A stretch of DNA of 61,565 bases, from positions 197,750-259,314 of the forward strand of contig CAZKAD010000001.1 in the NCBI GenBank assembly GCA_964550845.1, given 5' to 3'. This document shows, piece by piece, positions 9,550-56,624 of this stretch (positions are counted from its first letter, which is position 1; every line of letters begins with the position of its first letter). Source of the DNA: an uncultured Gammaproteobacteria bacterium (GTDB taxonomy: Bacteria > Patescibacteriota > Patescibacteriia > Magasanikbacterales > UBA922). The position numbers and the translations under genes are program-made. The notes beneath the pieces are model-generated. The model saw only the letters and a program-made list of their open reading frames with translations, searched no databases and had not been told where the DNA came from.

Positions 9550-9660
9550 TTAACGTCCTCGAAAGGACTGGTTAAACGTCCTCGAAAGGACTGGTTAAAC
9601 GTCCTCGAAAGGACTAGTTAAACGTCCTCGAAAAAAGGACTGGTTAAACGTCTAGAAAAC
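9550..9660 (+). repeat. GTTAAAC-hairpin element, tandem array (~4.5 units)
   Basis: ttaa(a)cgtcctcgaaaggactgg repeated with period 23 (26 in unit 4), between convergent genes. Confidence 0.9.
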
Positions 9661-9663
9661 CAA

Positions 9664-10233
9664 TTAAATAATTTCAAATCGACTTACACGCAGACCTGAT
9701 GTCACATCATAATCAATCTCAATTCTTTTTCCATTTTCGAGCACTGATCTTGAAGTTGATTGAAGCAAATATTGTGATCGATGGGCATTTTTCATCTGAG
9801 CAACTTTGTAGTGTAAAGTATGACCATCGGTTTCAATTACAAACTTGTTATACAGAGAATTGAACAATGGATAATCAAGATTACAACCTTCGAGCGTCAA
9901 AATATTTTCGCTTTCTGCGGAGGCGAATCTGAAAGAGATAAAATCGAGATGTTGTTCAAACCCGTCGAGTCGAAGACGGGCAAAAGTCCCTCCAATCACA
10001 TACAAATCAAATAATCCGTCGAACAAAATTGGAATCGAAATTCTTCCATCCTTTATCTCTGCTTGACGAGACAAATAAACTACATCCTTCTCTGACATCA
10101 CATTGGTTGCGACACAAAGTTTGACGCTATCTGGCATCTCTTCGACATATTGATGATCATTGTCGAGCTGTTCGATCAATTCTTGTTGATTGAATTCCTC
10201 TTTGGAAAAATTTCTCCAGATTGTGTTATCCAT
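9664..10233 (-). CDS. hypothetical protein, divergent family member 3
   Basis: 189 aa with WRNFSKEEF, GLFDLYVIGGTFARL, LEGCNLDYPL and IETDGHTLHYK. AAAATTGA on the gene strand at 10267..10274. Confidence 0.8.
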   Translation of the reverse strand: MDNTIWRNFSKEEFNQQELIEQLDNDHQYVEEMPDSVKLCVATNVMSEKDVVYLSRQAEIKDGRISIPILFDGLFDLYVIGGTFARLRLDGFEQHLDFISFRFASAESENILTLEGCNLDYPLFNSLYNKFVIETDGHTLHYKVAQMKNAHRSQYLLQSTSRSVLENGKRIEIDYDVTSGLRVSRFEII

Positions 10234-10266
10234 TCCGGGTTTTTAATTCAATCGTTTAAAAAGTGA

Positions 10267-10274
10267 TCAATTTT
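10267..10274 (-). promoter_or_regulatory. AAAATTGA octamer
   Basis: 34 nt upstream of ATG 10233. Confidence 0.6.
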
Positions 10275-10344
10275 TTACTTCCCGTAAGACTCATAAAAAT
10301 GACTTAAATAAAATTGGACTAAATAAACTCTTTAGTTGTTAATC

Positions 10345-11055
10345 ATGGATGAAATGGATCAATTGGCTCGAGATCTTGAACAGAAAATTCAACAATTTCA
10401 TCTCAGAAATAATCTTCCAGCTACGTCCTCCGAAATTAATTACCGAGAAGAAGATGCCGAAGTAACTAAAGATCCAAGAAGCTTCTGGAGAGAATTGACA
10501 AAGGAAGAAATGACTGAGCAAAAATTGCTTCAACGATGCAGTCCTGAAAATCTCTCTGAAGTTTCAATTGATCAGCAGCTTTTTCTTGGACTTGCTATGT
10601 CCAAGAAAGATGTAGTGTATCATCGACGAAAATTGCAAATGAATTTCACAGGAGAATCTCTCTGGAAATGTCGACTCAACGATTATGACGGTGTCTTTGA
10701 TTTGAAAGTGAAAGGCGGGACATGGGCAGATTTAGTGATTTCTACAACTGGTTATGACCCGATTCGAATTAAATTTGCCGCTCGTTCATGTCAGCAAGGT
10801 GAATCTTCGGATGGAAAGATTAGTCATCAATTGGTGCTCGAAGAGTGCAACCGAGATAATCCTCTTTTTATTTCTGCTGCCCTTCGAAACAGATATTTTA
10901 TTGAAACGAATGGCTCGGAGATTGAATTTACAGGGTTCCGTTATCAAAATAATGTCCGCCGGCAAATTGATAAACTCAATCCGATGGCTTCTGTATCAGT
11001 TTTTGAAACTGGTCAAGTGATTAAAATTGGTTTACAGAGCCTCGTACTTATATGA
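10345..11055 (+). CDS. hypothetical protein, divergent family member 4
   Basis: ORF 10336..11055 trimmed to the first ATG. Motifs RSFWRELTKEEMT, GVFDLKVKGGTWADL, LEECNRDNPL and IETNGSEIEF. Confidence 0.75.
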   Translation: MDEMDQLARDLEQKIQQFHLRNNLPATSSEINYREEDAEVTKDPRSFWRELTKEEMTEQKLLQRCSPENLSEVSIDQQLFLGLAMSKKDVVYHRRKLQMNFTGESLWKCRLNDYDGVFDLKVKGGTWADLVISTTGYDPIRIKFAARSCQQGESSDGKISHQLVLEECNRDNPLFISAALRNRYFIETNGSEIEFTGFRYQNNVRRQIDKLNPMASVSVFETGQVIKIGLQSLVLI

Positions 11056-11105
11056 TTGATCAGTAAACACATTCTCTTGAATTGATTAAAAGTCTTTTTG
11101 AAAGA

Positions 11106-11113
11106 AAAATTGA
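11106..11113 (+). promoter_or_regulatory. AAAATTGA octamer
   Basis: Overlaps hairpin 11109..11136. It lies upstream of the small ORF 11141..11332 and of the 11316 gene. Confidence 0.45.
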
Positions 11114-11136
11114 TCATTTGCTTTAAAATGATCAAT
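11109..11136. terminator. hairpin downstream of 10345..11055
   Basis: Arms attgatcatt / aatgatcaat, 8-nt loop. Confidence 0.5.
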
Positions 11137-11315
11137 CGAAATGAAACGTTGTTCTTTTCATCATTCACTGAGAGAATATTTGTATCAACGAGCTTTTCTC
11201 CGTTCGCTTGGGACGTTTAACTTTGTCGACGTTAGCTTAATTAATTCGGGTAAATTTCCATTTACAATTTCGGAAGGTTTAGTCAAGTACGCTCGAACCG
11301 GAGATCGAAATTGTC

Positions 11316-11681
11316 ATGTCTTCTCGAATTGATGTACTTGCTAAAACCATCTTTACAATTGCTATATTCGGATTGGCCATCTTTTTCACTCTATTGTCAA
11401 TTTACCGAACACCGAATTATCAAGAATGCGATTATAAGTTTTGTACAACTCCTTGTCCGACAAATCCTGATATTTGTAGAGAATATGGCTGTAATGTGTG
11501 CTATAGCAAAGGATCTTGTATTGACAATTGCCAACCTTATCCATTGGCAAGCTTTATCATTTCTGTAATTGCTGCAATTGTAATGTGGATTACAATATTA
11601 TTTTGGCTTTATTATTTGATTAAGGCAGCTCGAAACCATCAGATCGAAGCTCAACAATACGAAGGTTATCGAACTTTTTAA
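11316..11681 (+). CDS. small TM - Cys-rich - TM membrane protein
   Basis: 121 aa: an N-terminal TM (IFTIAIFGLAIFFTLLSI), a 10-Cys segment, then a second TM. The stop TAA lies inside the first GTTAAAC unit. Confidence 0.75.
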   Translation: MSSRIDVLAKTIFTIAIFGLAIFFTLLSIYRTPNYQECDYKFCTTPCPTNPDICREYGCNVCYSKGSCIDNCQPYPLASFIISVIAAIVMWITILFWLYYLIKAARNHQIEAQQYEGYRTF

Positions 11682-11760
11682 ACATCCCTTCGGGATTGGT
11701 TAAACATCCCTTCGGGATTGGTTAAACGGCCCTTCGGGATTGGTTAAACTTCCTTCAAAT
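11678..11760 (+). repeat. GTTAAAC-hairpin element, tandem array (~3.5 units)
   Basis: ttaaacatcccttcgggattgg x2, ttaaacggcccttcgggattgg, and a partial unit. The first unit holds the stop codon of 11316..11681. Confidence 0.9.
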
Positions 11761-11769
11761 TGATATAAA

Positions 11770-11777
11770 AAAATTGA
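11770..11777 (+). promoter_or_regulatory. AAAATTGA octamer
   Basis: 65 nt upstream of the kinase ATG 11842. Confidence 0.6.
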
Positions 11778-11796
11778 TATTCTCTCGAATATCAAT
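11773..11796. terminator. hairpin overlapping the kinase promoter octamer
   Basis: Arms attgatattc / gaatatcaat, loop tctc. Confidence 0.5.
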
Positions 11797-11841
11797 ATTG
11801 AAGATTAAAGATTGAATCATAACTTATGTTGTCAATTGTGA

Positions 11842-12696
11842 ATGGACCATCTTTTAAGAAGTATTTTTGAATGTTCGAAAAATAAACTCTGGAATCATTA
11901 TCGGCTTCCCGAATTGGATGCCAAAGAATGTCTCGAGCGAGGATTTCAACTTGGCAAAGAAATTCATTCTACAAAGCATCACGCAATTCTATTGGCAGCT
12001 CGAGAAGGAAAGGTTTTTGCACTTAAAGTGACAACCAAAACTGCAGTGCTCGCTCAAAGATTGGCAACTGAATCAAAAATTCAACCCTCGCCTTATTTAT
12101 TAACTTATGTTGAAAGGTTTGAAACTCGATCAAGAATTGTTTCAGTCTATCCTTACATGGAAAAAAGAAGTCTAGATAAATGTCCACAGGAAATACTTCG
12201 TGGTAGTTTTATTAGTATCTCTCTTGATGTTTGTAGAGGAATTGAGGCTCTTCATCAACAAAATTTGGTCCATCGAGATATCAAACTTCAAAATGTCTTG
12301 TTCGATCAGAAATGTAAATTAATCGATTTCGAATTTTGTATCCCGGTTGGTGATCCGATTGACGCAATTGGAACTCCGAATTATCTGGCTCCAGAAAATT
12401 TCTTAACGAAAAACCTGAAAGCGAGTTGTTCATTGGATATTTGGAGTCTCGGTGTAGTTTTTTACAAGATTTTGACAGAAAAGCTACCCTTTGATGGACT
12501 TGATCTCCAAGATTTGATTCCAAAGATTAAAGCCCAACCGATTGATTTTTCAATTGTTCCAGAGCCTTACCGTCCATTAATTTCAAAGATGCTTGAACGT
12601 GATCCAATTAAACGGATTGTAATTGGAGACGTAATTCAAGCATTGAAATCCCTTCGATATCCACCATTTCGAACAAATGTCGACAAAAAGGTTTGA
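11842..12696 (+). CDS. Ser/Thr protein kinase
   Basis: 284 aa with HRDIKLQNVLF, DFEF and GTPNYLAPE, then DIWSLGVVFY. AAAATTGA at 11770..11777; hairpin 12722..12747. Confidence 0.9.
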   Translation: MDHLLRSIFECSKNKLWNHYRLPELDAKECLERGFQLGKEIHSTKHHAILLAAREGKVFALKVTTKTAVLAQRLATESKIQPSPYLLTYVERFETRSRIVSVYPYMEKRSLDKCPQEILRGSFISISLDVCRGIEALHQQNLVHRDIKLQNVLFDQKCKLIDFEFCIPVGDPIDAIGTPNYLAPENFLTKNLKASCSLDIWSLGVVFYKILTEKLPFDGLDLQDLIPKIKAQPIDFSIVPEPYRPLISKMLERDPIKRIVIGDVIQALKSLRYPPFRTNVDKKV

Positions 12697-15962: not shown

Positions 15963-15986
15963 ATCTTTTTCCCTTGGGAAAAAGAT
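15963..15986. terminator. hairpin at the 3' end of RING gene 15986..16606
   Basis: Arms atctttttcc / ggaaaaagat, loop cttg. Confidence 0.55.
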
Positions 15987-16606
15987 TATTCGATAATTTC
16001 TTGTCTTAATTTGTATTGTGATAGTATAAAAATACAATGAATAGTATCAAAGCCGAGTAAAATTGGGCAAAAAAGAGGTTTTGGTAAAAAAACAACTGAA
16101 CAAGCTAATACTATTAAAATCCGATCGGCAACTGCTCGATATCCTCGAGTCCATTGATTTTGCCTGGGAGGTGAAGAGAAGATATAAGTTAATGCATGAA
16201 TGGGAGAAGCAAATAAATAAGGAAGAAAATTGTGTTCAATTTCCACACTATCAAGAGCAAATAAACAAATCATTGTAAGAGAAAATATCATGCTGAGTCC
16301 TCGAAGAACAAGAACGAAAATTGAAATGCGTATTCTTTCTTGCTGCTGAGGCGACACTTCTGGTCTCGGAGCGGGAAGATTGCAAAAAGGACATCTTTTA
16401 CATTCGTTTTGACAATCTTGACAAATTGGATGAATACAATTGCATTCTCGAATAAAAGAATAATTCAGCATCGAACCTTGACGAACCATACAAATTTTAC
16501 AAATTTTTTCATCGTCGATTGCAGGTGGACAAATTTTTTCATCGTCGATTGTAGGTAGACAAATTTTTTCATCGTTAACGATAGATAATTGAGACTCTAC
16601 ATCCAT
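15986..16606 (-). CDS. membrane-anchored RING-finger protein
   Basis: 206 aa. N-terminal DDEKIC repeats precede CKIC...CNCIHPICQDC...CKRCPFC, then hydrophobic C-terminal segments. AAAATTGA on the gene strand at 16641..16648. Confidence 0.8.
   Translation of the reverse strand: MDVESQLSIVNDEKICLPTIDDEKICPPAIDDEKICKICMVRQGSMLNYSFIRECNCIHPICQDCQNECKRCPFCNLPAPRPEVSPQQQERIRISIFVLVLRGLSMIFSLTMICLFALDSVEIEHNFLPYLFASPIHALTYIFSSPPRQNQWTRGYRAVADRILIVLACSVVFLPKPLFCPILLGFDTIHCIFILSQYKLRQEIIE
16501..16577. repeat. 30-bp coding tandem repeat x2.5 in the RING gene
   Basis: aaattttttcatcgtcgattg(c/t)aggt(g/a)gac, encoding the DDEKIC.P.I repeats. Confidence 0.85.
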
Positions 16607-17628: not shown

Positions 17629-18717
17629 ATGGATCGATCTTGTATGGTTTGCGCAGCTCATCATGTAATGACCACTGAGTGTGGACATTATATTTGCGGG
17701 GAATGTTTTGAGAACTACCTCGCCATTCGAATGGATGCCGGGTATCAATTCAATTGCCCAGAACCTAATTGCAAGCACATTTTTACTGGGAGAGAACTCA
17801 CCGGATTTATGTTCGGAGAGTTTGGTAAACGATTGAGCAACTATTTGTCTCAACAAATTACCTCAAATCTCTTTCCATTGAAATGTGTTCATTGTACATC
17901 TGAATGGACAATCCCGAAAAAGCCCGAAAATCCATGTGTCTTCTGTGAAACTTGCGCCAATTTCTTTTGTTCCGAATGTAACACTGATTGGCACGAAGGC
18001 AAGAAATGTTCACCGAAGAACGTCGCTCTTGATCTTCGTATTGACGAAGATCAAGACAAATATGGCAATTGTCCAAAGTGCCAACGACTCATCAACAAAG
18101 GTGACGGTTGTGATCATGTCAGATGTGTTTGCGGATTTGAATTCTGGTGGTCTACCAAAGAAGAGTTCAAGATTGCAAGCTGGGATCAAGCTGAACAACT
18201 TCCTTTCCATGAAGTTGTCAGACAAGAAGAGATGAAAAGTCCAATTCCTGGAGTTCGAGGACCTCGACTCGTGGAAGTACCTCGAGTTGTTGAACGGCGA
18301 CTCGCGCAAGTACCTCTTCAGGAAGTACCTCGACGAGAGGTTCCTCGACAAGAGATTCCTCGACCAATTCCACCACCTCTTCCACCTCGACCGACTGGAG
18401 CTCAAAAAGCTTTGCTCAAAGAGGTTCATCAAGACATCAAGATGAAAGAAAAAGCGAACGAGACGATTTATGTCCGCTTTTTCGAAGAACCTCAAATTCC
18501 TCTGAATCGGCAACAACCGAGAATCATCAATCATTGGAAGAAACATCTCGATAAATACGACAAGAAGTATCTACAAGAAAAGATGTATGAGATTGTTCAC
18601 TTCGCGCCTGTCTTTTACTCAAAAGAAGATTTTGTGAATGTACTTGCTTACCGACTGACCTATTATAGTTCAGTCAGTGTCGAGTATCTTCAAAAACTTC
18701 CTCCTCACGTAGCTTAG
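17629..18717 (+). CDS. RBR (RING-IBR-RING) E3 ubiquitin ligase-like protein
   Basis: RING1 is CMVC..CGHYICGEC..CPEPNC. The IBR is CVHC..CVFCETC..CSEC..H..C. RING2 is CPKCQRLINKGDGCDHVRCVCGFEFWW. A Pro-rich EVPR-repeat tail follows. Confidence 0.85.
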   Translation: MDRSCMVCAAHHVMTTECGHYICGECFENYLAIRMDAGYQFNCPEPNCKHIFTGRELTGFMFGEFGKRLSNYLSQQITSNLFPLKCVHCTSEWTIPKKPENPCVFCETCANFFCSECNTDWHEGKKCSPKNVALDLRIDEDQDKYGNCPKCQRLINKGDGCDHVRCVCGFEFWWSTKEEFKIASWDQAEQLPFHEVVRQEEMKSPIPGVRGPRLVEVPRVVERRLAQVPLQEVPRREVPRQEIPRPIPPPLPPRPTGAQKALLKEVHQDIKMKEKANETIYVRFFEEPQIPLNRQQPRIINHWKKHLDKYDKKYLQEKMYEIVHFAPVFYSKEDFVNVLAYRLTYYSSVSVEYLQKLPPHVA

Positions 18718-18823: not shown

Positions 18824-18903
18824 GTAAACGTCCCTTCGGGATTGGTTAAACTTCCCTTCGGGATTGGTTAAACGTCCCTTCGGGATTTTCTGAATTGGTT
18901 AAA
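18824..18903 (+). repeat. GTTAAAC-hairpin element, tandem array (3 units) ending ggttaaa-ATG
   Basis: gtaaacgtcccttcgggattgg, ttaaacttcccttcgggattgg, ttaaacgtcccttcgggatt, then ttctgaattggttaaa. Confidence 0.9.
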
Positions 18904-19779
18904 ATGAGCATGGAATGGGTCCTTCGAGGAGAAGGAGACAGATCACCTGAAACTATAAATATGTTAGAATGGGTCCGATATGATGAAAAAATTCCGGAGT
19001 GTTTGCTTGAAATTGCGAGATGTGCCCAACAAAATCAAGTTCCGGAATATTTGTTTCATCGTTGTTCCAATTTTACCAAACAAAAAGTCGGACAATTTCC
19101 CATAAAATTTCAAGTCGAGATGATAGATCTTTGGCAAAGTCCTCATACATTAGTTAATTTTCACCCATACACCAATCAACATATGGATGTTATTTTGATT
19201 GAAATGCTAGTCAATATCTCACATCCCGATTTCACTCGATTGAAATGTATTCCCGAATTTCTACGTGCTTGTACAGGAAAATTATTCTGTCTAATTAATG
19301 AAACCGGATTAAGACTAAGAGATGTTTTTGAAAAACTTCAAACATTTAGTTACATAGCTACAAGAATTGAGCCTGAAGATTTACTTCTTGTTGGCAAGAT
19401 AGAGCGTCTTCATCTTCAGGAGATTGACAGCATTAGTAAATTTCTGCTTGCCAATCAAAGATTTCAGGTTAATGAACTTAAATTAAATATACCTCCAGAG
19501 GAAAAAATTCCTCGAATGTTTTTCCCTGAAATGATCTTTGCATCTCGCGAGAAACCAAATGGATTTCTTCTTGAGAAAGAATATCAACGCATAGTTTCAT
19601 ATGGAATAAATAATGAAGGTTACATCTATGTCCTTCCTCAAGTGTTTGTGAACATCATTGCAACTGGATTGTTTGAACGGATACCTTTTCTTGTTGAAGA
19701 TCTCTACGATCCCAGACTTTTAATTCAGATTTGGTGGTTTGCTGATGATTTCTTTCTCGTAAGCAAAACGAAAAATTGA
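18904..19779 (+). CDS. LYDPRLL-motif family protein
   Basis: Trimmed to the ATG at 18904. C-terminal FLVEDLYDPRLLIQIWWFADDF; close paralog of 19822..20655. Confidence 0.8.
   Translation: MSMEWVLRGEGDRSPETINMLEWVRYDEKIPECLLEIARCAQQNQVPEYLFHRCSNFTKQKVGQFPIKFQVEMIDLWQSPHTLVNFHPYTNQHMDVILIEMLVNISHPDFTRLKCIPEFLRACTGKLFCLINETGLRLRDVFEKLQTFSYIATRIEPEDLLLVGKIERLHLQEIDSISKFLLANQRFQVNELKLNIPPEEKIPRMFFPEMIFASREKPNGFLLEKEYQRIVSYGINNEGYIYVLPQVFVNIIATGLFERIPFLVEDLYDPRLLIQIWWFADDFFLVSKTKN
19772..19779 (+). promoter_or_regulatory. AAAATTGA octamer overlapping the upstream stop codon
   Basis: 43 nt upstream of ATG 19822. Confidence 0.6.
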
Positions 19780-19821
19780 AAAAATCCCTCTCTTTTCGAA
19801 GAAAGGGGGAAGAGATTAATT

Positions 19822-20655
19822 ATGGCCATAAAATGGCTATGGTACAGCGATTCATTACCCCGATATTTTACCAAGTTTGCAGAATCTATTAAACATAATC
19901 AAGTTGAACCAGACTTGTTGGATAATTCCCTAGCGGCAACCAAGAGCATTATCCAAAATGGTATTCAAAAGATTGAAATAAATATTGGTTTAATCAATTT
20001 CGGGACAACAGATCCATGTCTACTGTTGATTTGCTGTTGTACTATGGCAAGAGATAACAAATTGGTTTGTCTGATTGACATCAAAATGAATATTTCACAT
20101 CCTGATTTCGATCGTATTGACTGTATTGCGAGTCTTCTTGATGGATGTAAAGGAAAAATTGCCAGCTTTTGGAATGAAAGTGAGAGAGAAGATATTTTTA
20201 AAGGACTTCAGGTTGATTCCTATTTTGCAACAAAAATTCCGCTTCAGAACTTACTTCAAATCGAAAAGTTTAAACGGCTTTTTCTTCAAGATATCAGGAA
20301 TATTCGCGAACTCTTGTTATGCGAACAAAAACTTCCAATTGATCGTCTCGACATTGATTTCAAACCCGGAGATGAACTTCCACGGATGTTTTATCCTGAG
20401 ATGATGATCGAACTTGATGGAAAACCAAATGAATCTCTTTTCCGGCAAGAATATCAACGATCATTTACACTTGGAATACATGATGAATTTTATATTTATC
20501 TTCTTCCTCAAGTGTTTGTTGAATTGATCGCAAGTGGTTTGGCTATTAGAATACCATTTCTGGTTGAAGATCTCTATGATCCAAGACTCTTAATTCAGAT
20601 TTGGAACTTTGCTGACCATTTTGATTTGATTTGGCGAGCCGCTTCACCATTGTAG
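19822..20655 (+). CDS. LYDPRLL-motif family protein
   Basis: 277 aa with C-terminal FLVEDLYDPRLLIQIWNFADHF. AAAATTGA at 19772..19779. Confidence 0.8.
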   Translation: MAIKWLWYSDSLPRYFTKFAESIKHNQVEPDLLDNSLAATKSIIQNGIQKIEINIGLINFGTTDPCLLLICCCTMARDNKLVCLIDIKMNISHPDFDRIDCIASLLDGCKGKIASFWNESEREDIFKGLQVDSYFATKIPLQNLLQIEKFKRLFLQDIRNIRELLLCEQKLPIDRLDIDFKPGDELPRMFYPEMMIELDGKPNESLFRQEYQRSFTLGIHDEFYIYLLPQVFVELIASGLAIRIPFLVEDLYDPRLLIQIWNFADHFDLIWRAASPL

Positions 20656-20663
20656 AAAATTGA
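20656..20663 (+). promoter_or_regulatory. AAAATTGA octamer
   Basis: 34 nt upstream of ATG 20697. Confidence 0.6.
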
Positions 20664-20696
20664 TTCTCTTTCTCTCTTTCCTCTTGAGGAAAAAGA

Positions 20697-21503
20697 ATGG
20701 AAACTTCAATTGAGAGAAAGAGTGAAAGTAAAGATGTTGAAAAGCCATTCAATCCAATTGAGATCTTTCGGATTGAAGCCAAGACTTTGATTGAGAAACT
20801 GGGCAAAACTTTATTCGGGCCTGTTACTGATAGAATATTTAATTTACATCTGAATGAAGATCAAGGAATGTTATATTTCCATTTTTCGCCGAACTTGTTC
20901 ACTCGAAGAACCGAAGCCGAGTTTGAAGATGATCACGGAAATACCGATCTCTCAAAGATACCGGGAATCTTCAAACTTGAGGATAAACCAAGATTTCTTC
21001 AATTTCTCCAACAATACAACGAAAACATTGTTACGATCCTGACGCGTGCTTATTATAAAGTCAAGGGATTGTCATTGATGGTGATCGAAGATTCGAAAGG
21101 AAATATTCAATTTCGTTACCACAGCATGGGATTTCTTGACGATAATACACACGATCTTGATCATTTGATAGAAATAATTGTTCGAATGCTTGGAGAAAAG
21201 ATTGATCGTGACTATGGATACGATCCATTGGCCGAGTTGACTCTTTGCGGATTGTCTGCGACGGAAAATTGTTGGACAAGTTTTCTACTTCGAGATGTAT
21301 ATGATCCTCGATTGCTAATTTTGATTTCACAATTTGCTTTCGGATACACTCAAAAAGAAATTGATAACATTGAAAAGCAATTTGAAGCTTGCTTCGTTGA
21401 TAATCACCACAAACGGCTAGAATATAAAATACCTCTTTGGACATCACGATGGATTCCAAAACGAACTCTTCTCGCTGCTCCACGTCGAGATTCAGAAGAA
21501 TAA
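20697..21503 (+). CDS. LYDPRLL-motif family protein (motif followed by a ~60-aa tail)
   Basis: 268 aa with LLRDVYDPRLLILISQFAFGY. AAAATTGA at 20656..20663; hairpin 21502..21525. Confidence 0.8.
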   Translation: METSIERKSESKDVEKPFNPIEIFRIEAKTLIEKLGKTLFGPVTDRIFNLHLNEDQGMLYFHFSPNLFTRRTEAEFEDDHGNTDLSKIPGIFKLEDKPRFLQFLQQYNENIVTILTRAYYKVKGLSLMVIEDSKGNIQFRYHSMGFLDDNTHDLDHLIEIIVRMLGEKIDRDYGYDPLAELTLCGLSATENCWTSFLLRDVYDPRLLILISQFAFGYTQKEIDNIEKQFEACFVDNHHKRLEYKIPLWTSRWIPKRTLLAAPRRDSEE

Positions 21504-37046: not shown

Positions 37047-37979
37047 TTAAATTTCGTACAGACAATCCCGACATCTCACAAAATTTTTGATTTTATTAAT
37101 TACATTGAAAGTTGTATAATCTTCATTCTCGTCTTCACTTTTAAGAAAGCTAGTAATCAAATTGAACACACGAGGATCATACAAATCTTTTGACAAAAAG
37201 AATGGCCAATAAGTTTCACTTTCTTTTTCAGGATGTTCCACGATGAACAATCCAACCTCAATCAAGGTGGCCAATTTATCTTCATGTGAATAAGGTAGAA
37301 AAATTCGTGGAACATCGAGACAAGTTTTCTTGTCTTGTTTCATCGCTTCCCGAATGGCAAGTCCTTCTATCATTTTATCAAGTTCAAGTATTCCTCCACC
37401 ATAACATATCCAAATTTTTAACTGTTGTATTGGCATTGAAACAAGTCCATCAATAGCAGTATCAATTAAATCGAATTCATCTTGGAATCTCTTATTGTTT
37501 GGTAAAAATTTACATCCAATCATACAAACATTATTCAAATGATAACCCAAATAATCATATTCGGCAAACAAAATCGAAGTGATTTGAGTTCTTTTCCCAG
37601 AATAAACGCGAACAGGTAATCGATTGAGAAATTCGAATAATACCGAGTACGAACAATATGGAAGGAAAATTGCTACCGAATGAAAACTAACTAAATTTTT
37701 TCTTTCTTTTGCCCGACGTTCAATCGGTTTCTTAGTTTTAGCAGCATTCTCAAAGGGATCTTTTTTATGCGTATCTGCAAATGCGACCAAGTCAAGCGAG
37801 GCGTCAAGGTCAAGGTTGAGTTTAAACCAATTCCAGCTGTAACTGTATTGGAATCTTGATAATCCAATAGTAATGCCAAGAGTTGATTTTTTCAGCATCA
37901 TCTGTTCAAGACGAGTTAAAAAAGGAATTAAATCTCGGTCGTCTGCCCGACAAAGATATCCAGTTCTCTGCTCGAACAT
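37047..37979 (-). CDS. LYDPRLL-motif family protein, subtype A
   Basis: 310 aa. N-terminus MFEQRTGYLCRADDRDLIPFL is paralogous to 39056..39931. C-terminal FLSKDLYDPRVFNLITSFLK. AAAATTGA on the gene strand at 38041..38048. Confidence 0.8.
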   Translation of the reverse strand: MFEQRTGYLCRADDRDLIPFLTRLEQMMLKKSTLGITIGLSRFQYSYSWNWFKLNLDLDASLDLVAFADTHKKDPFENAAKTKKPIERRAKERKNLVSFHSVAIFLPYCSYSVLFEFLNRLPVRVYSGKRTQITSILFAEYDYLGYHLNNVCMIGCKFLPNNKRFQDEFDLIDTAIDGLVSMPIQQLKIWICYGGGILELDKMIEGLAIREAMKQDKKTCLDVPRIFLPYSHEDKLATLIEVGLFIVEHPEKESETYWPFFLSKDLYDPRVFNLITSFLKSEDENEDYTTFNVINKIKNFVRCRDCLYEI

Positions 37980-38040
37980 ATTTGTTAGAGTAAATTAATA
38001 TTGAATATTGAATATTTTTAGTGAAGAGTGAATATTAATT

Positions 38041-38048
38041 TCAATTTT
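38041..38048 (-). promoter_or_regulatory. AAAATTGA octamer
   Basis: 62 nt upstream of ATG 37979. Confidence 0.6.
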
Positions 38049-38081
38049 GATTTTTCATTCTGTCTAAAGTTTATCAGGAAG

Positions 38082-38984
38082 TTAGTACATCAAAGCATTA
38101 TTCGTCGATCCGACTATTCTTGTAATATGAATTGCATTCATCATTTCCGCTACCTTCTGGAATAAATCAAAGTATTTGGAATCATCTGCGAATTGAGCTA
38201 TCAGACAAAGCAATCTTGGATCATACACTTCTCGGGTTAGAAAAAAGTTGAACACTCCTTTTGATTGAGATAAACCATTTACAACCAAGTTATCAAAAAT
38301 TGGCATCCAAATAAAAGCTCGACGGGGAGAAAAATTATCTCGGAATATTCTTGGGCATTCAACTCGATATTCGGCTTCTAAATCGTGAAAGATGCGTAAG
38401 ATAGCCGGAAAGAAATCATCCATTAGCATCGTGTACAACGAAATATTTGTTTTTGGAAGGACTTGAACAAAAGCACGATAATTGTCAGCAAATTTTTGAA
38501 CGAGAAACTCTCTCCGGGATGAATTTTGATCAAAGAAATAGTTAGCATACGATCTTGTATCCGAATAATTAGCAAGTCGAGCTTTTTGTTCGAGCTCTTC
38601 ATGATCAATACGATTATAGAATAATGCTTCAAATTTAAATGGAACTTGAGGAAGAAATGGAATAAAATCATTCTCAAAATTAATCTCGATGTTATATTGA
38701 TTTAATATCTCGCAAATTTCATCTGGAAAGAAATCAGATATTTTTTCTTTCCCATAGGTATTGAGAATAATTGATATTTGTTTTTGATTTACCAAATCAA
38801 CAGAATCTGGTGAAGTTTTACTTAATTTTGTGATTGAGACATAAATACATTTCCGTTGATTTTTTTGAAATGGATCATTTAAGATCCGAAATATTGGAGG
38901 TTTTCGTCTGCCCTTAACAGCATCTTTCCATTTATGATATAAATCATTCATTGTCGATTTAATCTCCTTCGACCTGATCATCAT
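38082..38984 (-). CDS. LYDPRLL-motif family protein, subtype B
   Basis: 300 aa. IPFLPQVPFKFEALFYNRIDHEEL is paralogous to 40042..40872. C-terminal FLTREVYDPRLLCLIAQFADDS. Confidence 0.8.
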   Translation of the reverse strand: MMIRSKEIKSTMNDLYHKWKDAVKGRRKPPIFRILNDPFQKNQRKCIYVSITKLSKTSPDSVDLVNQKQISIILNTYGKEKISDFFPDEICEILNQYNIEINFENDFIPFLPQVPFKFEALFYNRIDHEELEQKARLANYSDTRSYANYFFDQNSSRREFLVQKFADNYRAFVQVLPKTNISLYTMLMDDFFPAILRIFHDLEAEYRVECPRIFRDNFSPRRAFIWMPIFDNLVVNGLSQSKGVFNFFLTREVYDPRLLCLIAQFADDSKYFDLFQKVAEMMNAIHITRIVGSTNNALMY

Positions 38985-39055
38985 TGTTTGTGAGATTATC
39001 TGTTTTTGTAAGACGTTTAAATTGAATCAAGATTCAATTTATTGTGCGGAAATAT

Positions 39056-39931
39056 TTATCTTGTAAATTGATTGATTAGTATCAATAATCGAGGATCGTA
39101 CAAATCTTGAAGAAAAAAGGATTGTAATAATGATTCGGTATCAGAGAGACCAAGAATGATCAATCGATGAAACTTATTTTCGAGTAGACAATTGTCTTTG
39201 TATGGAAAAACTCTCTGAACATCTAAACAAGTCTTTTTCTTCTCTTGAATAACATCTTGAATAACATCTCGAATAGCAGTATCTTCGACCAACAAAAATG
39301 TTTCCTCTGACTCTGTGTATGAATTACCATCGTGAATCCATAATTGGAGATGTCGAACTGGAATTGAAAGTATCCCTTTGAGAAGAACCCGAACGAATTG
39401 TTTAAGAGGTCTTTCGGGATATTTAACCAGTCCTTCGGGACGTTTAACAAGACCTTGAGGATATATTTTAAATCGAAATATAGTAGTATTGTTTATGTGA
39501 TGTCCTGTATAAGGATATTCGGCGATGAGAATTGATGAAATTTTACTTTTGTTTCCTGAATAAACACGAGTTGGAAACTGATTAATAAAGTCAATAACCA
39601 TTGTGTGTTTTTCTTTTGGAATCATCAGATCGACACAATGAAACATAATTAAATTTGAATGATATTCACCTTGGTATCCAATATTCTTTGATTCCGAATG
39701 ACCATAGTAAACAAACTTTCTTTGTTCTCGTTCAAATTGTTCCAAATCTAACGATTCGTTAAGATCGAGATTTAATAAACACCATTCCCAGTGATAAGAG
39801 TATTCTTCATTATCATCAAGATAAATACCAAGCGTGGCTTTGTCCACCATCATATCTTTAAGATAATTTAAGAAAGAAAATAAATCTCTGTCATCAGACC
39901 GAGAACATAATCCCGATCTATCCGAAAACAT
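39056..39931 (-). CDS. LYDPRLL-motif family protein, subtype A, with a 3-unit in-frame repeat insert
   Basis: 291 aa with N-terminus MFSDRSGLCSRSDDRDLFSFL and C-terminal end FFLQDLYDPRLLILINQFTR. YPQGLVKRPEGLVKYPERPLKQ is encoded by 39400..39472. Confidence 0.8.
   Translation of the reverse strand: MFSDRSGLCSRSDDRDLFSFLNYLKDMMVDKATLGIYLDDNEEYSYHWEWCLLNLDLNESLDLEQFEREQRKFVYYGHSESKNIGYQGEYHSNLIMFHCVDLMIPKEKHTMVIDFINQFPTRVYSGNKSKISSILIAEYPYTGHHINNTTIFRFKIYPQGLVKRPEGLVKYPERPLKQFVRVLLKGILSIPVRHLQLWIHDGNSYTESEETFLLVEDTAIRDVIQDVIQEKKKTCLDVQRVFPYKDNCLLENKFHRLIILGLSDTESLLQSFFLQDLYDPRLLILINQFTR
39400..39472 (-). repeat. GTTAAAC-hairpin element, 3 tandem units inside a CDS
   Basis: The plus strand reads tttaagaggtctttcgggata tttaaccagtccttcgggacg tttaacaagaccttgaggatat. 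On the gene strand it is read as YPQGLVKRPEGLVKYPERPLKQ. Confidence 0.85.
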
Positions 39932-39945
39932 TTTCGGTGTGATTT

Positions 39946-40046
39946 TGGACGTTTAACCACTTCAGAGAGTCCTGGGACGTTTAAAATCAATTTATTTAAT
40001 CAGTCTCGAAGAAAAGTTTAATCAGTCCTTTGGACGTTTAATCAAA
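39946..40046 (-). repeat. GTTAAAC-hairpin element, array of 3-4 divergent units
   Basis: ttggacgtttaaccacttcagagagtcctgggacgtttaaaatc...tttaatcagtctcgaagaaaagtttaatcagtcctttggacgtttaatc. Confidence 0.8.
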
Positions 40047-40872
40047 TTTCATTGGTGTCAATTTCTAATATCGATCGAGCAAGTCGAGACTCCCAAGATT
40101 GCCCCGTTTCATCTCTAAACTCATTGATCAGACAAAGCAATCTTGGATCATATAAATCTTGAGTAAGAAATTGGAACAACGGACCCGATGAGTAAATCGA
40201 TATACTATTCACTACAAGATTGTCCAGCTTAACTAAAGATTCATTTGATTCAAATTCCTCAGATACTTGAAATGTCCTTTTAACTTCACAATTTTCTTCA
40301 ACCTGATGAAAAGCTTTTAAAATTTCAACCGGAAAACTTCGAACAATCACAATATAAGAAGAAATTTTTGATCTTGACAGCGCCTTAAGAAAAATGTGGT
40401 AATTATGTGAGAGTTCTTCGACGAGAAACTTTCGTCTTTCTTGATCTTCATCAAAAAAGTAATTTGTAAAAGAAGAGATAAAGAAATGATCATATAATGT
40501 CTGACATTTTTGTCTTAATTTTTTATCATCAATTTGATTGTAAAAAACTGCTTTGAATGCAAAAGGTATCTGAGGAATAAGATGAACTGAATTCATAATG
40601 AAAGAAATTGAGACATCACAACGCGATATTTTCTCGATTATCTTTTTTGGAAACAATTTATCAAAAGTTTCATTTGTTTGAGGTTCGAGAGAAATGGTGA
40701 TGGAATCTGGGCAAATAACTACATTATTGTACCGCATTGCACTTCTCCCGTGGGTATGAATGAATACTTTTTTCTTTCCTTCGAGAGAGAAAGATTTTTT
40801 CCAATCATCAAAGTGCTGAATTGTTACTGACGAGTGCATCTTTATTAATTGATCAGATAAAAAGAAGATCAT
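40042..40872 (-). CDS. LYDPRLL-motif family protein, subtype B
   Basis: 276 aa with LIPQIPFAFKAVFYNQIDDKKL and C-terminal FLTQDLYDPRLLCLINEFRDET. Confidence 0.8.
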   Translation of the reverse strand: MIFFLSDQLIKMHSSVTIQHFDDWKKSFSLEGKKKVFIHTHGRSAMRYNNVVICPDSITISLEPQTNETFDKLFPKKIIEKISRCDVSISFIMNSVHLIPQIPFAFKAVFYNQIDDKKLRQKCQTLYDHFFISSFTNYFFDEDQERRKFLVEELSHNYHIFLKALSRSKISSYIVIVRSFPVEILKAFHQVEENCEVKRTFQVSEEFESNESLVKLDNLVVNSISIYSSGPLFQFLTQDLYDPRLLCLINEFRDETGQSWESRLARSILEIDTNEI

Positions 40873-43710: not shown

Positions 43711-43766
43711 TTACTTCAGAGAGTCCCGAGGGATGTTTAACCAGTCTCAAAAGACGTTTAACCACG
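43707..43766 (-). repeat. GTTAAAC-hairpin element, 2 units
   Basis: ttaattacttcagagagtcccgagggatgtttaaccagtctcaaaagacgtttaaccacg, containing stop 43708..43710. Confidence 0.8.
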
Positions 43767-44400: not shown

Positions 44401-45402
44401 TTAAAACAAACCAATCAAATTGATCGAGCGAGGATCATACAATTCTTCTGTTAAGAAAGAATGAAAAATACTTGCATTTTTAGCATTTAACCAATCCGAT
44501 AGGACGTTTAACCCGTTAGCAATTAATTGGCAAAAATTCAAATCATTCCAGCACACCGACTTCGATCGCTGTTGGCAAAATCGATGTAGATAATCGATGC
44601 CTGGGTAATCTTCGAAATACCAACACGCAATTAATCTCGCTCCGTGTTTGTTATTTAACTCTTCTGTTTTGTCTGCTGCGAGATAGGAAATGTTTTCAAT
44701 CGGAAGTTTACCTGGATATTGAAGACAATTAAGCAGCATCTTTCGATTATTAATTTCAAGAGTTTTGATGCTTTTTACCTGATTAAAGTAACTCATATCG
44801 CCGTGAAAAAATGGAAACATATAGAAAAGATCACAGACAAGTCCGTTAAGAAATCGATATTGCTCAGTATCAACAAATGGCAACAAGTATCCGAAATGGA
44901 GTCCTTGGTAAGGAAAATTTTCTTTTGCTTGTAGAGAGTAAAATCTTTGAAGAAAAGACCAATCTTGTCTCGGTTCGTCATATGTAAAAAATGGAAGTTC
45001 AATATGGATCACGTTCAACTCGCTAATATCAATATCAGGTAAAGCAGTAACAAGCGCGAAGTTTTCTTTATCGGCTGGTTCCCGGGGTCGAGGTTGAAGC
45101 GAAATGATAAAAAATTCGGTATTTTGTTCACTCTCAAGATTATTTTCGTTTATTGGTTTTTCTCCGTCAATCTTTTGCAGACCGAGTAAATTCTCAAAAC
45201 TTCCAAGCGAAGTAAATATTTTAGCAATCCCATCCGGAAATCTACCTTGTTCAAATTGATCCAGCATATCTTCAAGTTCCTTTTTTGACGAAAGTTCAAT
45301 CGTTTGCGGGAGTTCGTAACGAAACATTTCAGTTGAACTTCTTTCGGAGGGGTGTTTGATTTGATAAACAATTCTTTGAATCAATTTTCTTAGCCAGGTC
45401 AT
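44401..45402 (-). CDS. LYDPRLL-motif family protein with an in-frame repeat insert
   Basis: 333 aa ending FLTEELYDPRSINLIGLF. GLNVLSDWLNAK is encoded by element copy 44486..44515. Confidence 0.8.
   Translation of the reverse strand: MTWLRKLIQRIVYQIKHPSERSSTEMFRYELPQTIELSSKKELEDMLDQFEQGRFPDGIAKIFTSLGSFENLLGLQKIDGEKPINENNLESEQNTEFFIISLQPRPREPADKENFALVTALPDIDISELNVIHIELPFFTYDEPRQDWSFLQRFYSLQAKENFPYQGLHFGYLLPFVDTEQYRFLNGLVCDLFYMFPFFHGDMSYFNQVKSIKTLEINNRKMLLNCLQYPGKLPIENISYLAADKTEELNNKHGARLIACWYFEDYPGIDYLHRFCQQRSKSVCWNDLNFCQLIANGLNVLSDWLNAKNASIFHSFLTEELYDPRSINLIGLF
44486..44515 (-). repeat. GTTAAAC-hairpin element inside a CDS
   Basis: The gene strand reads gggttaaacgtcctatcggattggttaaatgc, translated as GLNVLSDWLNA. 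Confidence 0.85.
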
Positions 45403-45461: not shown

Positions 45462-46334
45462 TTATTCTTCTGCGAATTTCCAGATCAAGATTAGCACTCG
45501 AGGGTCGTATAGGCCCATCTCAGGTGTATCGCAACAAAGAAACTTGGTCCAATGATTCGAATCCTTCTTTCCGGATAACCCAGCTAAGATTAAGGTATCA
45601 AAATCTTTCTGTGAGTATAGCCAATTCGTGAATCTATCTGGATTTTGGAGATGACGCTGATAATGTTGAATCAGCAAGCCCCCGTTTGGATACTTATCGA
45701 TCTTCTCAAATGTCGGAATTAAATCCGCTGTGAAAAAACCTGAAATTTCGATTGATTCAACCGGCAACTTTCGTGGATATTGAATCAAATCGATTAAGTC
45801 TTCAGGTTGAGAGATAGTCAAAACTTCAACACGATTCATCTTTTCGATCTTCTTCAGTGTAACTCCGTATTGCTCGAACTGCATCTCAAGAAATTTACAT
45901 CCGAGCCCGTCGAGAAGTTTTCCATAGCAAACAGAGTCAACCAGATGACCTATCTCGACGCTATAAATCCCATCGAATTTTGGAGTTCGTTGGGAATTCA
46001 TTCTTGAGAATTGGCGAAAAATACTATATAGATCTTCCGACAATTCGGGACTCTCGTAGTTGAAGATGAACTTGATCACTGTATTCTCAGGAGTGAAAAT
46101 TTTTTCCACCGTGATTGTATCTTCTTCATCATCTTCCAAGAAATGAGAAATAATGCTGACACATACTACAAATGGATTTTGTTTGTCAAGAATGTTCATT
46201 AGGCTTTTTTGTTCCTCATCCGGGTAAGAATCTTGGAACAATTCTTGGGTAGAGATCTTTCCATCGGTCAAATCTCTCAGCATCTGATTGCATTCATTAA
46301 GAGTAATTTCTCTTGATGAACTGAACTGATTCAT
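45462..46334 (-). CDS. LYDPRLL-motif family protein
   Basis: 290 aa ending EMGLYDPRVLILIWKFAEE. AAAATTGA on the gene strand at 46410..46417. Confidence 0.8.
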   Translation of the reverse strand: MNQFSSSREITLNECNQMLRDLTDGKISTQELFQDSYPDEEQKSLMNILDKQNPFVVCVSIISHFLEDDEEDTITVEKIFTPENTVIKFIFNYESPELSEDLYSIFRQFSRMNSQRTPKFDGIYSVEIGHLVDSVCYGKLLDGLGCKFLEMQFEQYGVTLKKIEKMNRVEVLTISQPEDLIDLIQYPRKLPVESIEISGFFTADLIPTFEKIDKYPNGGLLIQHYQRHLQNPDRFTNWLYSQKDFDTLILAGLSGKKDSNHWTKFLCCDTPEMGLYDPRVLILIWKFAEE

Positions 46335-56006: not shown

Positions 56007-56624
56007 ATGTCTACTGAAGAACAAAAGATCGAAACGTCTACTAACGAACAAAAGATGGAAATTGAAGGACTTGATGCTGGAGTACAAGATGATTTCATCA
56101 AATTGAATTGTCGGGATAAAGTAATCGTTTCTGTGCATAGAAGAGCCTGTAGACTGTCTTCCTTGTTTCGAGGTTTACTCGAAACTCAGCCATGTGCGCC
56201 CGAGCATGAGGTTAAACAGATCGACTCTCATATCATGAAGCTAATTGTTGAATATCTTGAACATTATCGATACGAAGAACCGAAGATTCTGGAACCTCCA
56301 TTGAAGACTCCTGATCTAAAGGATCACGCCTCGGAATGGGATTGCAAGTTTGTTGCATACGACACCCCCGAACAGATGGGAACTTTTCTGACGCTGCTCA
56401 ATGCGGCAAATTTCTTGGAAATTATTTCGCTGAGAAATCTTTGCTGTGCAAAGTTCGCCACATTTCTCAAAACTAAAAATGTTGATGCATTGAAGGCATT
56501 GTTTAATGTGAAAGCCACGTTGACTCCCAAAGAAGAAAACGAAATTCGAAAGAAGTACCCCGAATACTTTGCTTGGTTGAAGTCTTCGCAAGAGACAAAA
56601 ACCGAGAGTAAAGTTGACGAATAG
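56007..56624 (+). CDS. SKP1: Skp1-like protein
   Basis: 205 aa. IKLNCRDKVIVSVHRRACRLSSLFRGLL is a BTB/POZ-like N-terminus. EWDCKFV...TFLTLLNAANFLEIISLRNLCCAKFATFLKTKNVDALKALFNV..TLTPKEENEIRKKYPEYFAW is collinear with the Skp1 C-terminal dimerisation region. Confidence 0.85.
   Translation: MSTEEQKIETSTNEQKMEIEGLDAGVQDDFIKLNCRDKVIVSVHRRACRLSSLFRGLLETQPCAPEHEVKQIDSHIMKLIVEYLEHYRYEEPKILEPPLKTPDLKDHASEWDCKFVAYDTPEQMGTFLTLLNAANFLEIISLRNLCCAKFATFLKTKNVDALKALFNVKATLTPKEENEIRKKYPEYFAWLKSSQETKTESKVDE

Follow-up and report, generated by a model that had tools for sequence, protein, structure and literature searches.

The YDPR box, an undescribed domain marking putative modular adaptors on giant-virus-like contigs

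PRANC (PF09372) is the C-terminal truncated F-box of the poxvirus Ank/PRANC proteins. In the cellular FBXL and FBXW proteins the F-box (PF00646, PF12937) lies N-terminal to the repeats; SCF ligases classically use two receptor domains, WD40 and LRR. SOCS-box proteins, among them WSB (WD40 plus a C-terminal SOCS box) and ASB (ankyrin plus SOCS box), dock on the BTB-fold adaptor Elongin C. A chlorovirus encodes its own Skp1 together with several proteins that carry F-box/PRANC-like tails on ankyrin repeats, according to work from 2014 outlined in PMC7019647.

We analysed a 61,565-nucleotide stretch of DNA (the window) that has features in common with each of these systems. As in the chlorovirus (PMC7019647), a large DNA virus has its own Skp1 and variable bodies followed by a short conserved C-terminal tail, and the logic proposed there, viral mimicry of SCF substrate receptors, would be the same here. 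With the poxvirus Ank/PRANC proteins the family shares multiple, often clustered copies and a short conserved C-terminal helical tail behind a variable body. Common to it and to the FBXL and FBXW proteins are relatives in which LRR or WD40 domains are joined to the module, a unit of three predicted helices and about 45 aa, and Skp1 nearby; in the SOCS-box proteins, too, a box of three helices and about 40 aa stands at the C-terminus behind WD40 or other repeat bodies. We named the shared tail the YDPR box and conclude that it is an undescribed domain marking modular adaptors.

Six-frame translation of the window gave exactly nine ORFs bearing [LV]YDPR, with all nine occurrences inside the family ORFs; in 50 shuffles, the chance expectation, the motif averaged 0.02 occurrences and never appeared more than once. 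A profile HMM built on the tail scored the nine members at 64-87 bits against 11 bits for the best non-member, and no tenth member was found among the 429 stop-to-stop ORFs of the window. The nine genes, all present as the initial annotation had placed them and with the shared tail peptides it had listed, are given below; AAAATTGA is the Mimiviridae early-promoter motif, which marks early genes (PMC5294985).

18904-19779, plus strand: family member of 291 aa, paralog of 19822-20655; module at about 19594-19752
19822-20655, plus strand: family member of 277 aa; module at about 20464-20622; AAAATTGA 49 nt upstream of the ATG
20697-21503, plus strand: family member of 268 aa with a singleton body; module at about 21189-21347; AAAATTGA 40 nt upstream
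37047-37979, minus strand: family member of 310 aa, type A of the A-B-A-B array; module at about 37134-37292
38082-38984, minus strand: family member of 300 aa, type B of the A-B-A-B array; module at about 38178-38336
39056-39931, minus strand: family member of 291 aa, type A of the A-B-A-B array; module at 39059-39211, which is the protein end; the member modelled by AlphaFold2
40042-40872, minus strand: family member of 276 aa, type B of the A-B-A-B array; module at about 40105-40263
44401-45402, minus strand: family member of 333 aa; module at 44404-44550, which is the protein end
45462-46334, minus strand: family member of 290 aa, distant paralog of 44401-45402; module at 45465-45620; 5-aa insertion before LYDPR

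The products measure 268-333 aa and the distance from the YDPR motif to the stop codon is 12-67 aa in the nine members, so that the motif does sit at or near the C-terminus as first described, although not always at its extreme; the 20697-21503 product, for example, continues for 50 aa after the module. The bodies form four paralog pairs and one singleton, with barely detectable similarity between pairs, and in the 37047-40872 cluster the two gene types alternate (A-B-A-B). Within pairs the modules are 42-79% identical, whereas the bodies reach 25-39%; for 18904-19779 and its paralog 19822-20655 the values are 79% and 34%. Rapidly diverging bodies in tandem paralog arrays are typical of host-interaction gene families, and we count this organisation in favour of an adaptor role. 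No body fold was recognised, either by Pfam on the nine proteins or by AlphaFold2 and Foldseek on the 39056-39931 product, whose full-length model has a mean pLDDT of 62 and gave uninformative matches (E>=0.07, TM<=0.27).

The conserved unit had been taken for a motif of about 13 residues. It extends over about 45 aa, Φ-x-x-L-I-x-x-G-L, a loop, and W-x-x-F-L-x-x-(G/D)-L-Y-D-P-R-L-L-x-L-I-x-x-F, and thus includes a Φ-x-x-L-(I/V)-x-x-G-L helix and a W-x-x-F-L helix upstream of the motif. An alignment of 102 module segments taken from diverse proteins shows no variation at D, P and R and 94-98% conservation at Y, F, L and G; D, P and R do not vary in the full-length alignment of 122 proteins either. 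Modelled alone with AlphaFold2, the module of the 39056-39931 product is predicted to fold into a compact unit of three helices (residues 4-23, 28-34 and 41-50) with a mean pLDDT of 85.8, and in the full-length model the same region keeps a pLDDT of 79-90 while the body is poorly predicted. As a domain the YDPR box is real, self-contained and under strong constraint; it has no entry in Pfam, and a literature search on strings of the core motif retrieved no relevant paper. Many of its conserved residues are hydrophobic or helix-capping, with D-P at a helix N-terminus, and may reflect maintenance of the fold rather than an interface.

When 1.84 billion representative sequences were searched exhaustively with HMMER (E<=1e-3), 125 clusters at 50% identity were returned, nearly all of which match only the module part of the profile (positions about 240-285). 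Of 129 motif-bearing proteins, a set composed of 121 search hits with the motif and eight close homologs, 98 carry the module at the C-terminus, 11 at the N-terminus and 20 internally or close to the C-terminus, and within the single locus L006 it is N-terminal in two proteins and C-terminal in one. Two of the architectures involve well-known repeat domains. In protein P0121 the module (residues 362-401) comes after a WD40 propeller (residues 4-356), and WD40 is present in three further members. Locus L007 contains a tandem run of four LRR genes (Pfam LRR_8 and LRR_4, E as low as 5e-28). In each of the four, a canonical GT...AG intron of 50-60 nt, predicted from sequence, links the LRR part in frame to a module exon. 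The module is therefore a portable unit that can be attached to either end of a protein. A programmed frameshift was rejected for L007, where the frame offset varies among copies and removal of the intron at the GT...AG boundaries brings all four back into frame. Also rejected were a role as LRR C-terminal cap, since the module follows WD40 propellers and starts other proteins as well, and one as tail anchor or transmembrane segment, the hydrophobic helix being only about 10 residues long.

The module family is confined to giant-virus-like contigs, and no relatives were found among the IMG/VR viral contigs. The module profile, used in a word-indexed homolog search, yielded just 13 fragments, all of them short and unnamed, and the cluster look-up gave an informative name for none of the members. 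Ankyrin is absent from the 25 most frequent Pfam families among 122 relatives; three L006 members look ankyrin-like by eye, although they have no ankyrin match in Pfam.

F-box or PRANC homology of the module, as proposed in the initial annotation, which had read the tail as a truncated F-box/PRANC-like unit, is not supported. Eight tails showed no Pfam match to F-box, F-box-like, PRANC or SOCS-box models (E<=10), the 102 module segments none to the F-box clan, PRANC or SOCS box (E<=10), and the nine full-length window proteins none to F-box, F-box-like, PRANC, SOCS box or ankyrin (E<=1). Pfam as a whole yielded nothing for the full-length proteins or the tails. Profile-profile comparison with hhalign gave a probability of 0.33% (0.09-0.33% over runs) against an F-box profile which itself retrieves 54 different F-box sequences from the PDB, and of 0.11% against one for the SOCS box, which retrieves SOCS1-4, ASB7 and ASB9 from the PDB. 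No F-box protein was returned when PDB sequences were searched with the module profile (E<=10). Foldseek found only two PDB matches, both at E>=8 and neither an F-box, from a 51-residue query that carries little power, and nothing below E=5 in the PDB and BFVD together. Six of the 13 weak BFVD matches are Faunusvirus proteins.

The conserved positions also fall differently from those of the known boxes. They lie upstream of Y-D-P-R, in the G-L and W-x-x-F-L helices, and not downstream as in the F-box; the L-P start of F-box helix 1 and the V-C-K-x-W signature are lacking, as is the BC-box L-x-x-x-C of the SOCS box. In four window members the protein stops 8-11 aa after YDPR, too early for F-box helices 2 and 3 to fit. 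The family departs from FBXL and FBXW proteins in showing no profile similarity and no Foldseek match to the F-box and in having its module mostly at the C-terminus rather than ahead of the repeats, and from the poxvirus proteins in its upstream helices and in bodies that are not ankyrin. Compared with the chlorovirus proteins (PMC7019647), it has no ankyrin repeats detected where theirs are ankyrin-based, and a tail that matches no F-box/PRANC model and can be N-terminal.

A Skp1 homolog had been assigned to the window along with two E3-type genes, and the assignment of Skp1 is borne out. Two of these genes carry Pfam matches above cut-off.

56007-56624, plus strand: virus-encoded Skp1 homolog of 205 aa, candidate common partner; both Pfam Skp1 domains; AAAATTGA 72 nt upstream
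17629-18717, plus strand: IBR-containing protein, Pfam IBR at 29 bits against a cut-off of 24.3; directly upstream of the first cluster

The 56007-56624 product scores 24.7 bits for the Skp1 POZ domain (PF03931, cut-off 21.9) and 38.6 bits for the dimerisation, F-box-binding domain (PF01466, cut-off 22.3). Its residues 31-183 are 26% identical to residues 4-155 of human SKP1, across the whole fold, and its PDB matches, 31 distinct sequences with E as low as 5e-11, are all Skp1. The 17629-18717 product probably is an RBR-type E3, as had been suggested: two stretches match IBR, RING1 is visible only as a Cys/His pattern by eye with no Pfam RING match, and an IBR gene adjoins a family cluster also in the relative L001. 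The RING protein suggested at 15986-16606 shows Cys/His patterns by eye and no Pfam match.

Loci fetched only through homology to the window's Skp1 also contain the module. In L009/L010, whose Skp1 is 51% identical to that of the window, one module gene lies within 10 kb, and in L012 (Skp1 42% identical, GC 50%) three do, so that module and viral Skp1 occur together in three diverged lineages, the window and two further ones. These lineages are related viruses and are not phylogenetically independent. No Skp1 was found by tblastn with the viral protein in the module-bearing loci L001-L008, which are short (L001, L006 and L007 span 17-20 kb each). Canonical F-box, PRANC, ankyrin and cullin genes were not found among the window's other ORFs or the called genes of the related loci, so that nothing else in the sampled DNA stands out as a viral partner for the viral Skp1; this Skp1 could work with host F-box proteins instead.

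Taken together, we propose that the YDPR box would act as a portable docking unit on the N- or C-terminus of target-binding bodies that evolve fast or consist of repeats, namely the orphan α/β bodies in the window and LRR and WD40 domains elsewhere, and would bring these varied bodies to one common, conserved partner. That partner would most likely be an SCF-type cullin-RING ubiquitin ligase, reached through the viral Skp1 (56007-56624) or through host Skp1, and the family would then be a set of substrate receptors, expressed early, through which ubiquitination in the infected cell is redirected. Its members would be counterparts of F-box, PRANC or SOCS-box proteins without recognisably belonging to any of these groups. 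Both the docking of the module and Skp1 or an E3 ligase as its partner are inferred, as is the link between the viral Skp1 and the YDPR family. We regard the general form of the proposal, docking onto a common partner that is most likely an SCF-type ligase through viral or host Skp1, as tentative, with a likelihood slightly short of even. The narrower statement that the box is a cullin-RING ligase docking domain unrelated to the F-box, coupling LRR, WD40 and orphan bodies to the viral Skp1 in a Mimiviridae-like clade, seems to us rather unlikely; it would amount to another, independently evolved way of making SCF substrate receptors. Given the lack of similarity to F-box, PRANC and SOCS box, an interaction with Skp1 would require a new binding mode. 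The initial idea of variable adaptors with a shared docking tail tied to the viral Skp1 gains from the mobility of the module, the WD40 and LRR fusions, the co-occurrence with Skp1 in three lineages and the absence of a canonical F-box gene in the window; the descent of the tail from F-box or PRANC is not supported. Should the module dock on Skp1 or another cullin adaptor, it would define a new class of ubiquitin-ligase receptors, numbering at least 10 per genome and 125 public sequence clusters, and would open a direct way into the rewiring of host proteolysis by an uncultured giant-virus clade. With a viral Skp1 encoded alongside a non-F-box family, the docking question can be tested directly.

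The same module could instead serve oligomerisation, scaffolding or localisation unrelated to ubiquitination, gathering the bodies in one place or complex and not on an E3 ligase, for instance through LisH-type dimerisation helices as found on WD40 proteins or as a tag for the viral factory or a membrane. The small size of the module, its strong hydrophobicity, its three helices and its place at protein termini fit such a role, and terminal helical dimerisation motifs are common on WD40 and LRR proteins. One 77-aa protein of the search set carries two copies of the module, and the module resembles no known ligase-docking box. The 102 module segments nevertheless have no Pfam match to LisH or another dimerisation domain (E<=10), and this explanation leaves the viral Skp1 without a viral partner and does not account for module genes in loci picked through viral Skp1 alone; we consider it unlikely. 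A true but extremely diverged F-box/PRANC homolog, with its third helix P-R-L-L-x-L-I-x-x-F as F-box helix 1 and the rest remodelled, would be in line with the presence of a viral Skp1 and an architecture that parallels FBXL, FBXW and the poxvirus and chlorovirus Ank-PRANC proteins (PMC7019647). Forced hhalign alignment, local and global, indeed pairs RLLxLIxxF (RLLilIxxF) with ELLLxIxxL (ELLLxIxsxL), as the initial annotation had suggested, but at P=0.18-0.5, which is noise, and the hhalign probabilities, the Pfam and Foldseek searches that returned no F-box, the upstream conservation and the short ends of four members make this descent the least probable of the readings considered. Whichever role applies, and even if the module does not dock on a ligase, the YDPR box is a clean, testable new domain that annotates hundreds of 'hypothetical proteins' and is usable as a marker for this virus clade.

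A third possibility, raised in the initial annotation, is that the module is a virion-incorporation (packaging) signal whose carriers travel inside the particles into the next host cell. A sorting signal would be expected to look like this, a tag that is short, invariant and terminal on otherwise unrelated bodies, and the family occurs only on giant-virus-like contigs. We know of no such signal in these viruses, however, and neither the LRR and WD40 fusions nor the linkage to Skp1 is predicted by it. Packaged structural proteins are, moreover, usually late. By contrast, the early-type AAAATTGA (PMC5294985 for its meaning) stands upstream of seven of the nine family genes and of the Skp1 gene, and is missing upstream of the structural genes checked in the window, P9 and a collagen-like gene, so that packaging appears very improbable. 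Counted as (A/T)AAATTGA within 120 nt upstream, the motif precedes 7/9 family genes versus 13/48 other genes (Fisher p=0.006), a sequence pattern that suggests early expression of the family. It is also found upstream of the RING-like and IBR genes.

The nine open reading frames singled out in the initial annotation are all present and the peptides quoted for them are exact. These genes and their neighbors of interest are:

15986-16606, RING-like gene
17629-18717 (+), IBR gene
18904-19779 (+), family gene, paralog of 19822
19822-20655 (+), family gene, paralog of 18904
20697-21503 (+), family gene, singleton body
37047-37979 (-), family gene, paralog of 39056
38082-38984 (-), family gene, paralog of 40042
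39056-39931 (-), family gene, paralog of 37047
40042-40872 (-), family gene, paralog of 38082
44401-45402 (-), family gene, paralog of 45462
45462-46334 (-), family gene, paralog of 44401
56007-56624 (+), Skp1 gene

Six-frame translation of the window yields nine occurrences of [LV]YDPR, every one inside these nine frames, against 0.02 on average and never more than 1 in fifty shuffles; the sole further Y-[DE]-P-[RK] is an unrelated YDPK in 58089-59306. With a profile HMM of the tails the members score 64-87 bits, and no other of the 429 stop-to-stop ORFs exceeds 11 bits, a gap that therefore sets the window's membership at exactly nine. A tenth member, P0149 (331 aa), lies outside the window on the same 259,314-bp contig, and a Logan contig (L015) encodes an identical protein with one further member adjoining it; the genome therefore holds at least ten members, and probably at least eleven.

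The C-terminal motif previously reported as common to these proteins is real, but the alignment shows a conserved unit of about 45 residues rather than about 13. This module, which we call the YDPR box, begins with a helix Φ-x-x-L-(I/V)-x-x-G-L and a variable loop, followed by W-x-x-F-L-x-(K/R)-(G/D/E)-L-Y-D-P-R-L-(L/F)-x-L-I-x-x-F. In the 102 module segments compared, D, P and R never vary; Y is conserved at 98%, F at 97%, G at 95%, L at 94% and the final F at 90%. The motif lies 12-67 residues before the stop codon in the nine window members. Using the 102-sequence alignment as input, AlphaFold2 modelled the 51-residue tail of the protein encoded at 39056-39931 as three helices (residues 4-23, 28-34 and 41-50) at a mean pLDDT of 85.8, with L-Y-D-P-R located in the turn that precedes helix 3. 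In the full-length model of the same protein (mean pLDDT 62, pTM 0.46) the module reaches 79-90 and the body is a poorly predicted α/β region.

The bodies comprise four paralog pairs and one singleton, and with the tails left out, similarity from one pair to another is barely detectable; within pairs, identity is 25-39% for the bodies and 42-79% for the modules. The A-B-A-B gene order of the 37047-40872 cluster, in which 37047 is the paralog of 39056 and 38082 that of 40042, points to tandem duplication of a two-gene unit.

A word-indexed search for homologs returned close relatives only, and IMG/VR contained no relatives. A related virus (GCA_020049755.1, GCA_020047435.1) has five members in 17 kb whose bodies are partly different. 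HMMER, run exhaustively against 1.84 billion representatives, retrieved 125 clusters at E≤1e-3, most of them matching the module alone (profile positions ~240-285); the exceptions are the top ten or so, whose alignments span most of their length, and a minority whose partial matches are longer. Among 129 motif-bearing proteins (121 from this search and eight close homologs), 98 have the module no more than 30 residues from the C-terminus and 11 no more than 45 from the N-terminus; in the other 20 it is placed elsewhere, mostly near the C-terminus. These counts are approximate because fragments are included. Both placements occur in complete ORFs of one metagenomic locus, L006, N-terminal in 1780-2910 and 9947-10582 and C-terminal in 10941-12146. 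Module-only matches and placement at either end thus identify the box as an independent, mobile domain.

Most bodies have no match in Pfam. The 405-aa protein P0121 carries a seven-blade-type WD40 propeller at residues 4-356 (E=3e-82) and then the module at 362-401, and three other members also have WD40 bodies. A 151-kb JGI contig (L007, GC 52%) encodes four tandem LRR genes of ~290 aa each (LRR_8 and LRR_4, Pfam E-values 1e-16 to 5e-28), each followed by a module ORF in a different frame. In all four copies a canonical intron predicted from the sequence (~50-60 nt, phase 1, boundaries G|GT(A/T)(T/G/A)G...(A/G)CAG|(A/G)C) fuses the LRR exon to the module exon in frame:

L007:8685-12330 (JGI 3300014059), four tandem LRR-module genes with GT...AG introns, each split in two by the gene caller

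These spliceosomal-type introns lie on a gene-dense, ORFan-rich contig that resembles a giant virus. LRR and WD40 are the two classic substrate-binding domains among SCF receptors.

The tail had been likened to an F-box or PRANC module, an identity that found no support in Pfam, hhalign, PDB or Foldseek searches. The Pfam models scanned include F-box, F-box-like, PRANC and SOCS_box, and none of these matched the nine full-length proteins (E≤1), eight tails or the 102 module segments (E≤10); at E≤10 no Pfam family matched the segments of more than one member. When all PDB sequences were searched with a profile (E≤10), the only matches were chance D-P-R-L-L ones, to designed helical repeats and a ribosomal protein. 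We built an F-box profile from 14 F-box sequences, which recovers 54 distinct PDB F-box sequences, many outside the building set; against it, hhalign aligned one column of the module at a probability of 0.33%. The suggested pairing of R-L-L-x-L-I-x-x-F with E-L-L-L-x-I-x-x-L was returned by permissive or global hhalign at P=0.18-0.5, which is noise. A validated SOCS-box profile gave a probability of 0.11%. Foldseek with the module model found nothing below E=8 in PDB, and in BFVD nothing below E=5. Of the 13 weak, non-significant BFVD matches (E 5-10), six are uncharacterised proteins of Faunusvirus sp., a metagenomic giant virus that may possess a comparable family of helical modules. Unlike in the F-box topology, the conserved helices of the module come before the core motif, and four window proteins stop 8-11 residues past it, too soon for F-box helices 2 and 3 to follow.

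The 56007-56624 product is a genuine Skp1 homolog, as first annotated. It has few homologs in a large database, eight at E≤1e-5, all on similar contigs, and the loci described next were picked solely for encoding one. L009/L010 (Skp1 51% identical to that of the window) shares the window's gene order Skp1, GNAT, fasciclin, P9, and 3.4 kb downstream of its Skp1 lies the gene for a 302-aa member whose module is C-terminal. L012 (GCA_013558375.1; Skp1 42% identical; GC 50% vs 36% in the window) has three module ORFs within 10 kb. Two short Skp1 contigs (~5 kb each) contain no module gene, one of them ending, as we read the gene order, within a gene at the position of the L009 member. Skp1 and the module are therefore found together in three diverged lineages, which fits a link but is not independent proof, because the lineages are related. 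Canonical F-box, PRANC, ankyrin and cullin genes were not found in the rest of the window or among the called genes of the related loci. L012, whose viral Skp1 homolog is the most distant, also encodes:

L012:5360-6136, 258-aa histone-fold protein
L012:10353-11051, TBP-like protein

The window derives from a nucleocytoplasmic large DNA virus and encodes a P9-type minor capsid protein, DUF5767, topoisomerase II, patatin, a collagen-like protein, thymidine kinase and an SMC/Rad50-like ATPase. The top over-represented upstream 8-mer, AAAATTGA, precedes 15 of 57 window genes in one count and 20 of 57 in another. It is the Mimiviridae early-promoter motif (PMC5294985), which suggests an Imitervirales-like virus that probably lies in or near that lineage. 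(A/T)AAATTGA occurs within 120 nt upstream of seven of the nine family genes vs 13 of 48 others (Fisher exact p=0.006) and precedes the Skp1 (-72), RING-like (-41) and IBR (-110) genes; none was found upstream of the P9, collagen-like or other large genes. Provided that the motif acts as in Mimivirus (PMC5294985), the family and Skp1 would be early genes, a class that fits host manipulation better than virion structure.

We tentatively propose, at somewhat below even chances, that the YDPR box acts as a portable docking domain and would bring variable target-binding bodies to a single conserved partner. The most plausible partner would be an SCF-type ubiquitin ligase, reached by way of Skp1 from either the virus or the host; the binding itself we infer entirely. 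Such a role would resemble that of F-box, PRANC or SOCS-box receptors, although the searches placed the module in none of these families, and a genuine F-box diverged past recognition is very improbable. An oligomerisation or localisation domain with no tie to ubiquitin is unlikely, and a virion-packaging signal, disfavoured by the early-type promoters of the family genes, decidedly so. The closest precedent is found in chloroviruses, whose viral Skp1 (A039L) partners ankyrin proteins bearing a C-terminal Skp1-binding motif (PMC7019647). Viral adaptor families sharing a ligase-docking tail are a known concept; what is new is the module, its ability to sit at either the N- or the C-terminus, and the fact that it is paired with a viral Skp1 yet shows no F-box similarity. 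Pfam (2025 copy) has no entry for it, it carries no informative name in any of the sequence collections, and 8.3 million papers searched for four core-motif strings gave no relevant match.

The RING-like protein (15986-16606), encoded ~2.3 kb from the first family cluster, is Cys-rich, with a hydrophobic C-terminal half that is probably membrane-spanning, and has no Pfam match; in a distant relative, a RING-like protein similar by eye (L006:1118-1711) directly adjoins a module gene. The Ser/Thr kinase at 46517-48244 has its Pfam kinase domain at residues 257-539, preceded by ~250 residues with no Pfam match. A short intergenic element, GGTTAAACGTCCC, is present in 29 copies in the window (≤2 mismatches) vs 0.63 expected, often in intergenic tandem runs of 2-4 copies with a spacing of ~22 nt, for example at:

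9570-9654
11698-11754
18844-18878
39946-40043
43730-43763

Upstream of 18904, and there only, it runs on into TTCGGG, forming a small hairpin; the element may act as a terminator hairpin or represent a second class of promoter.
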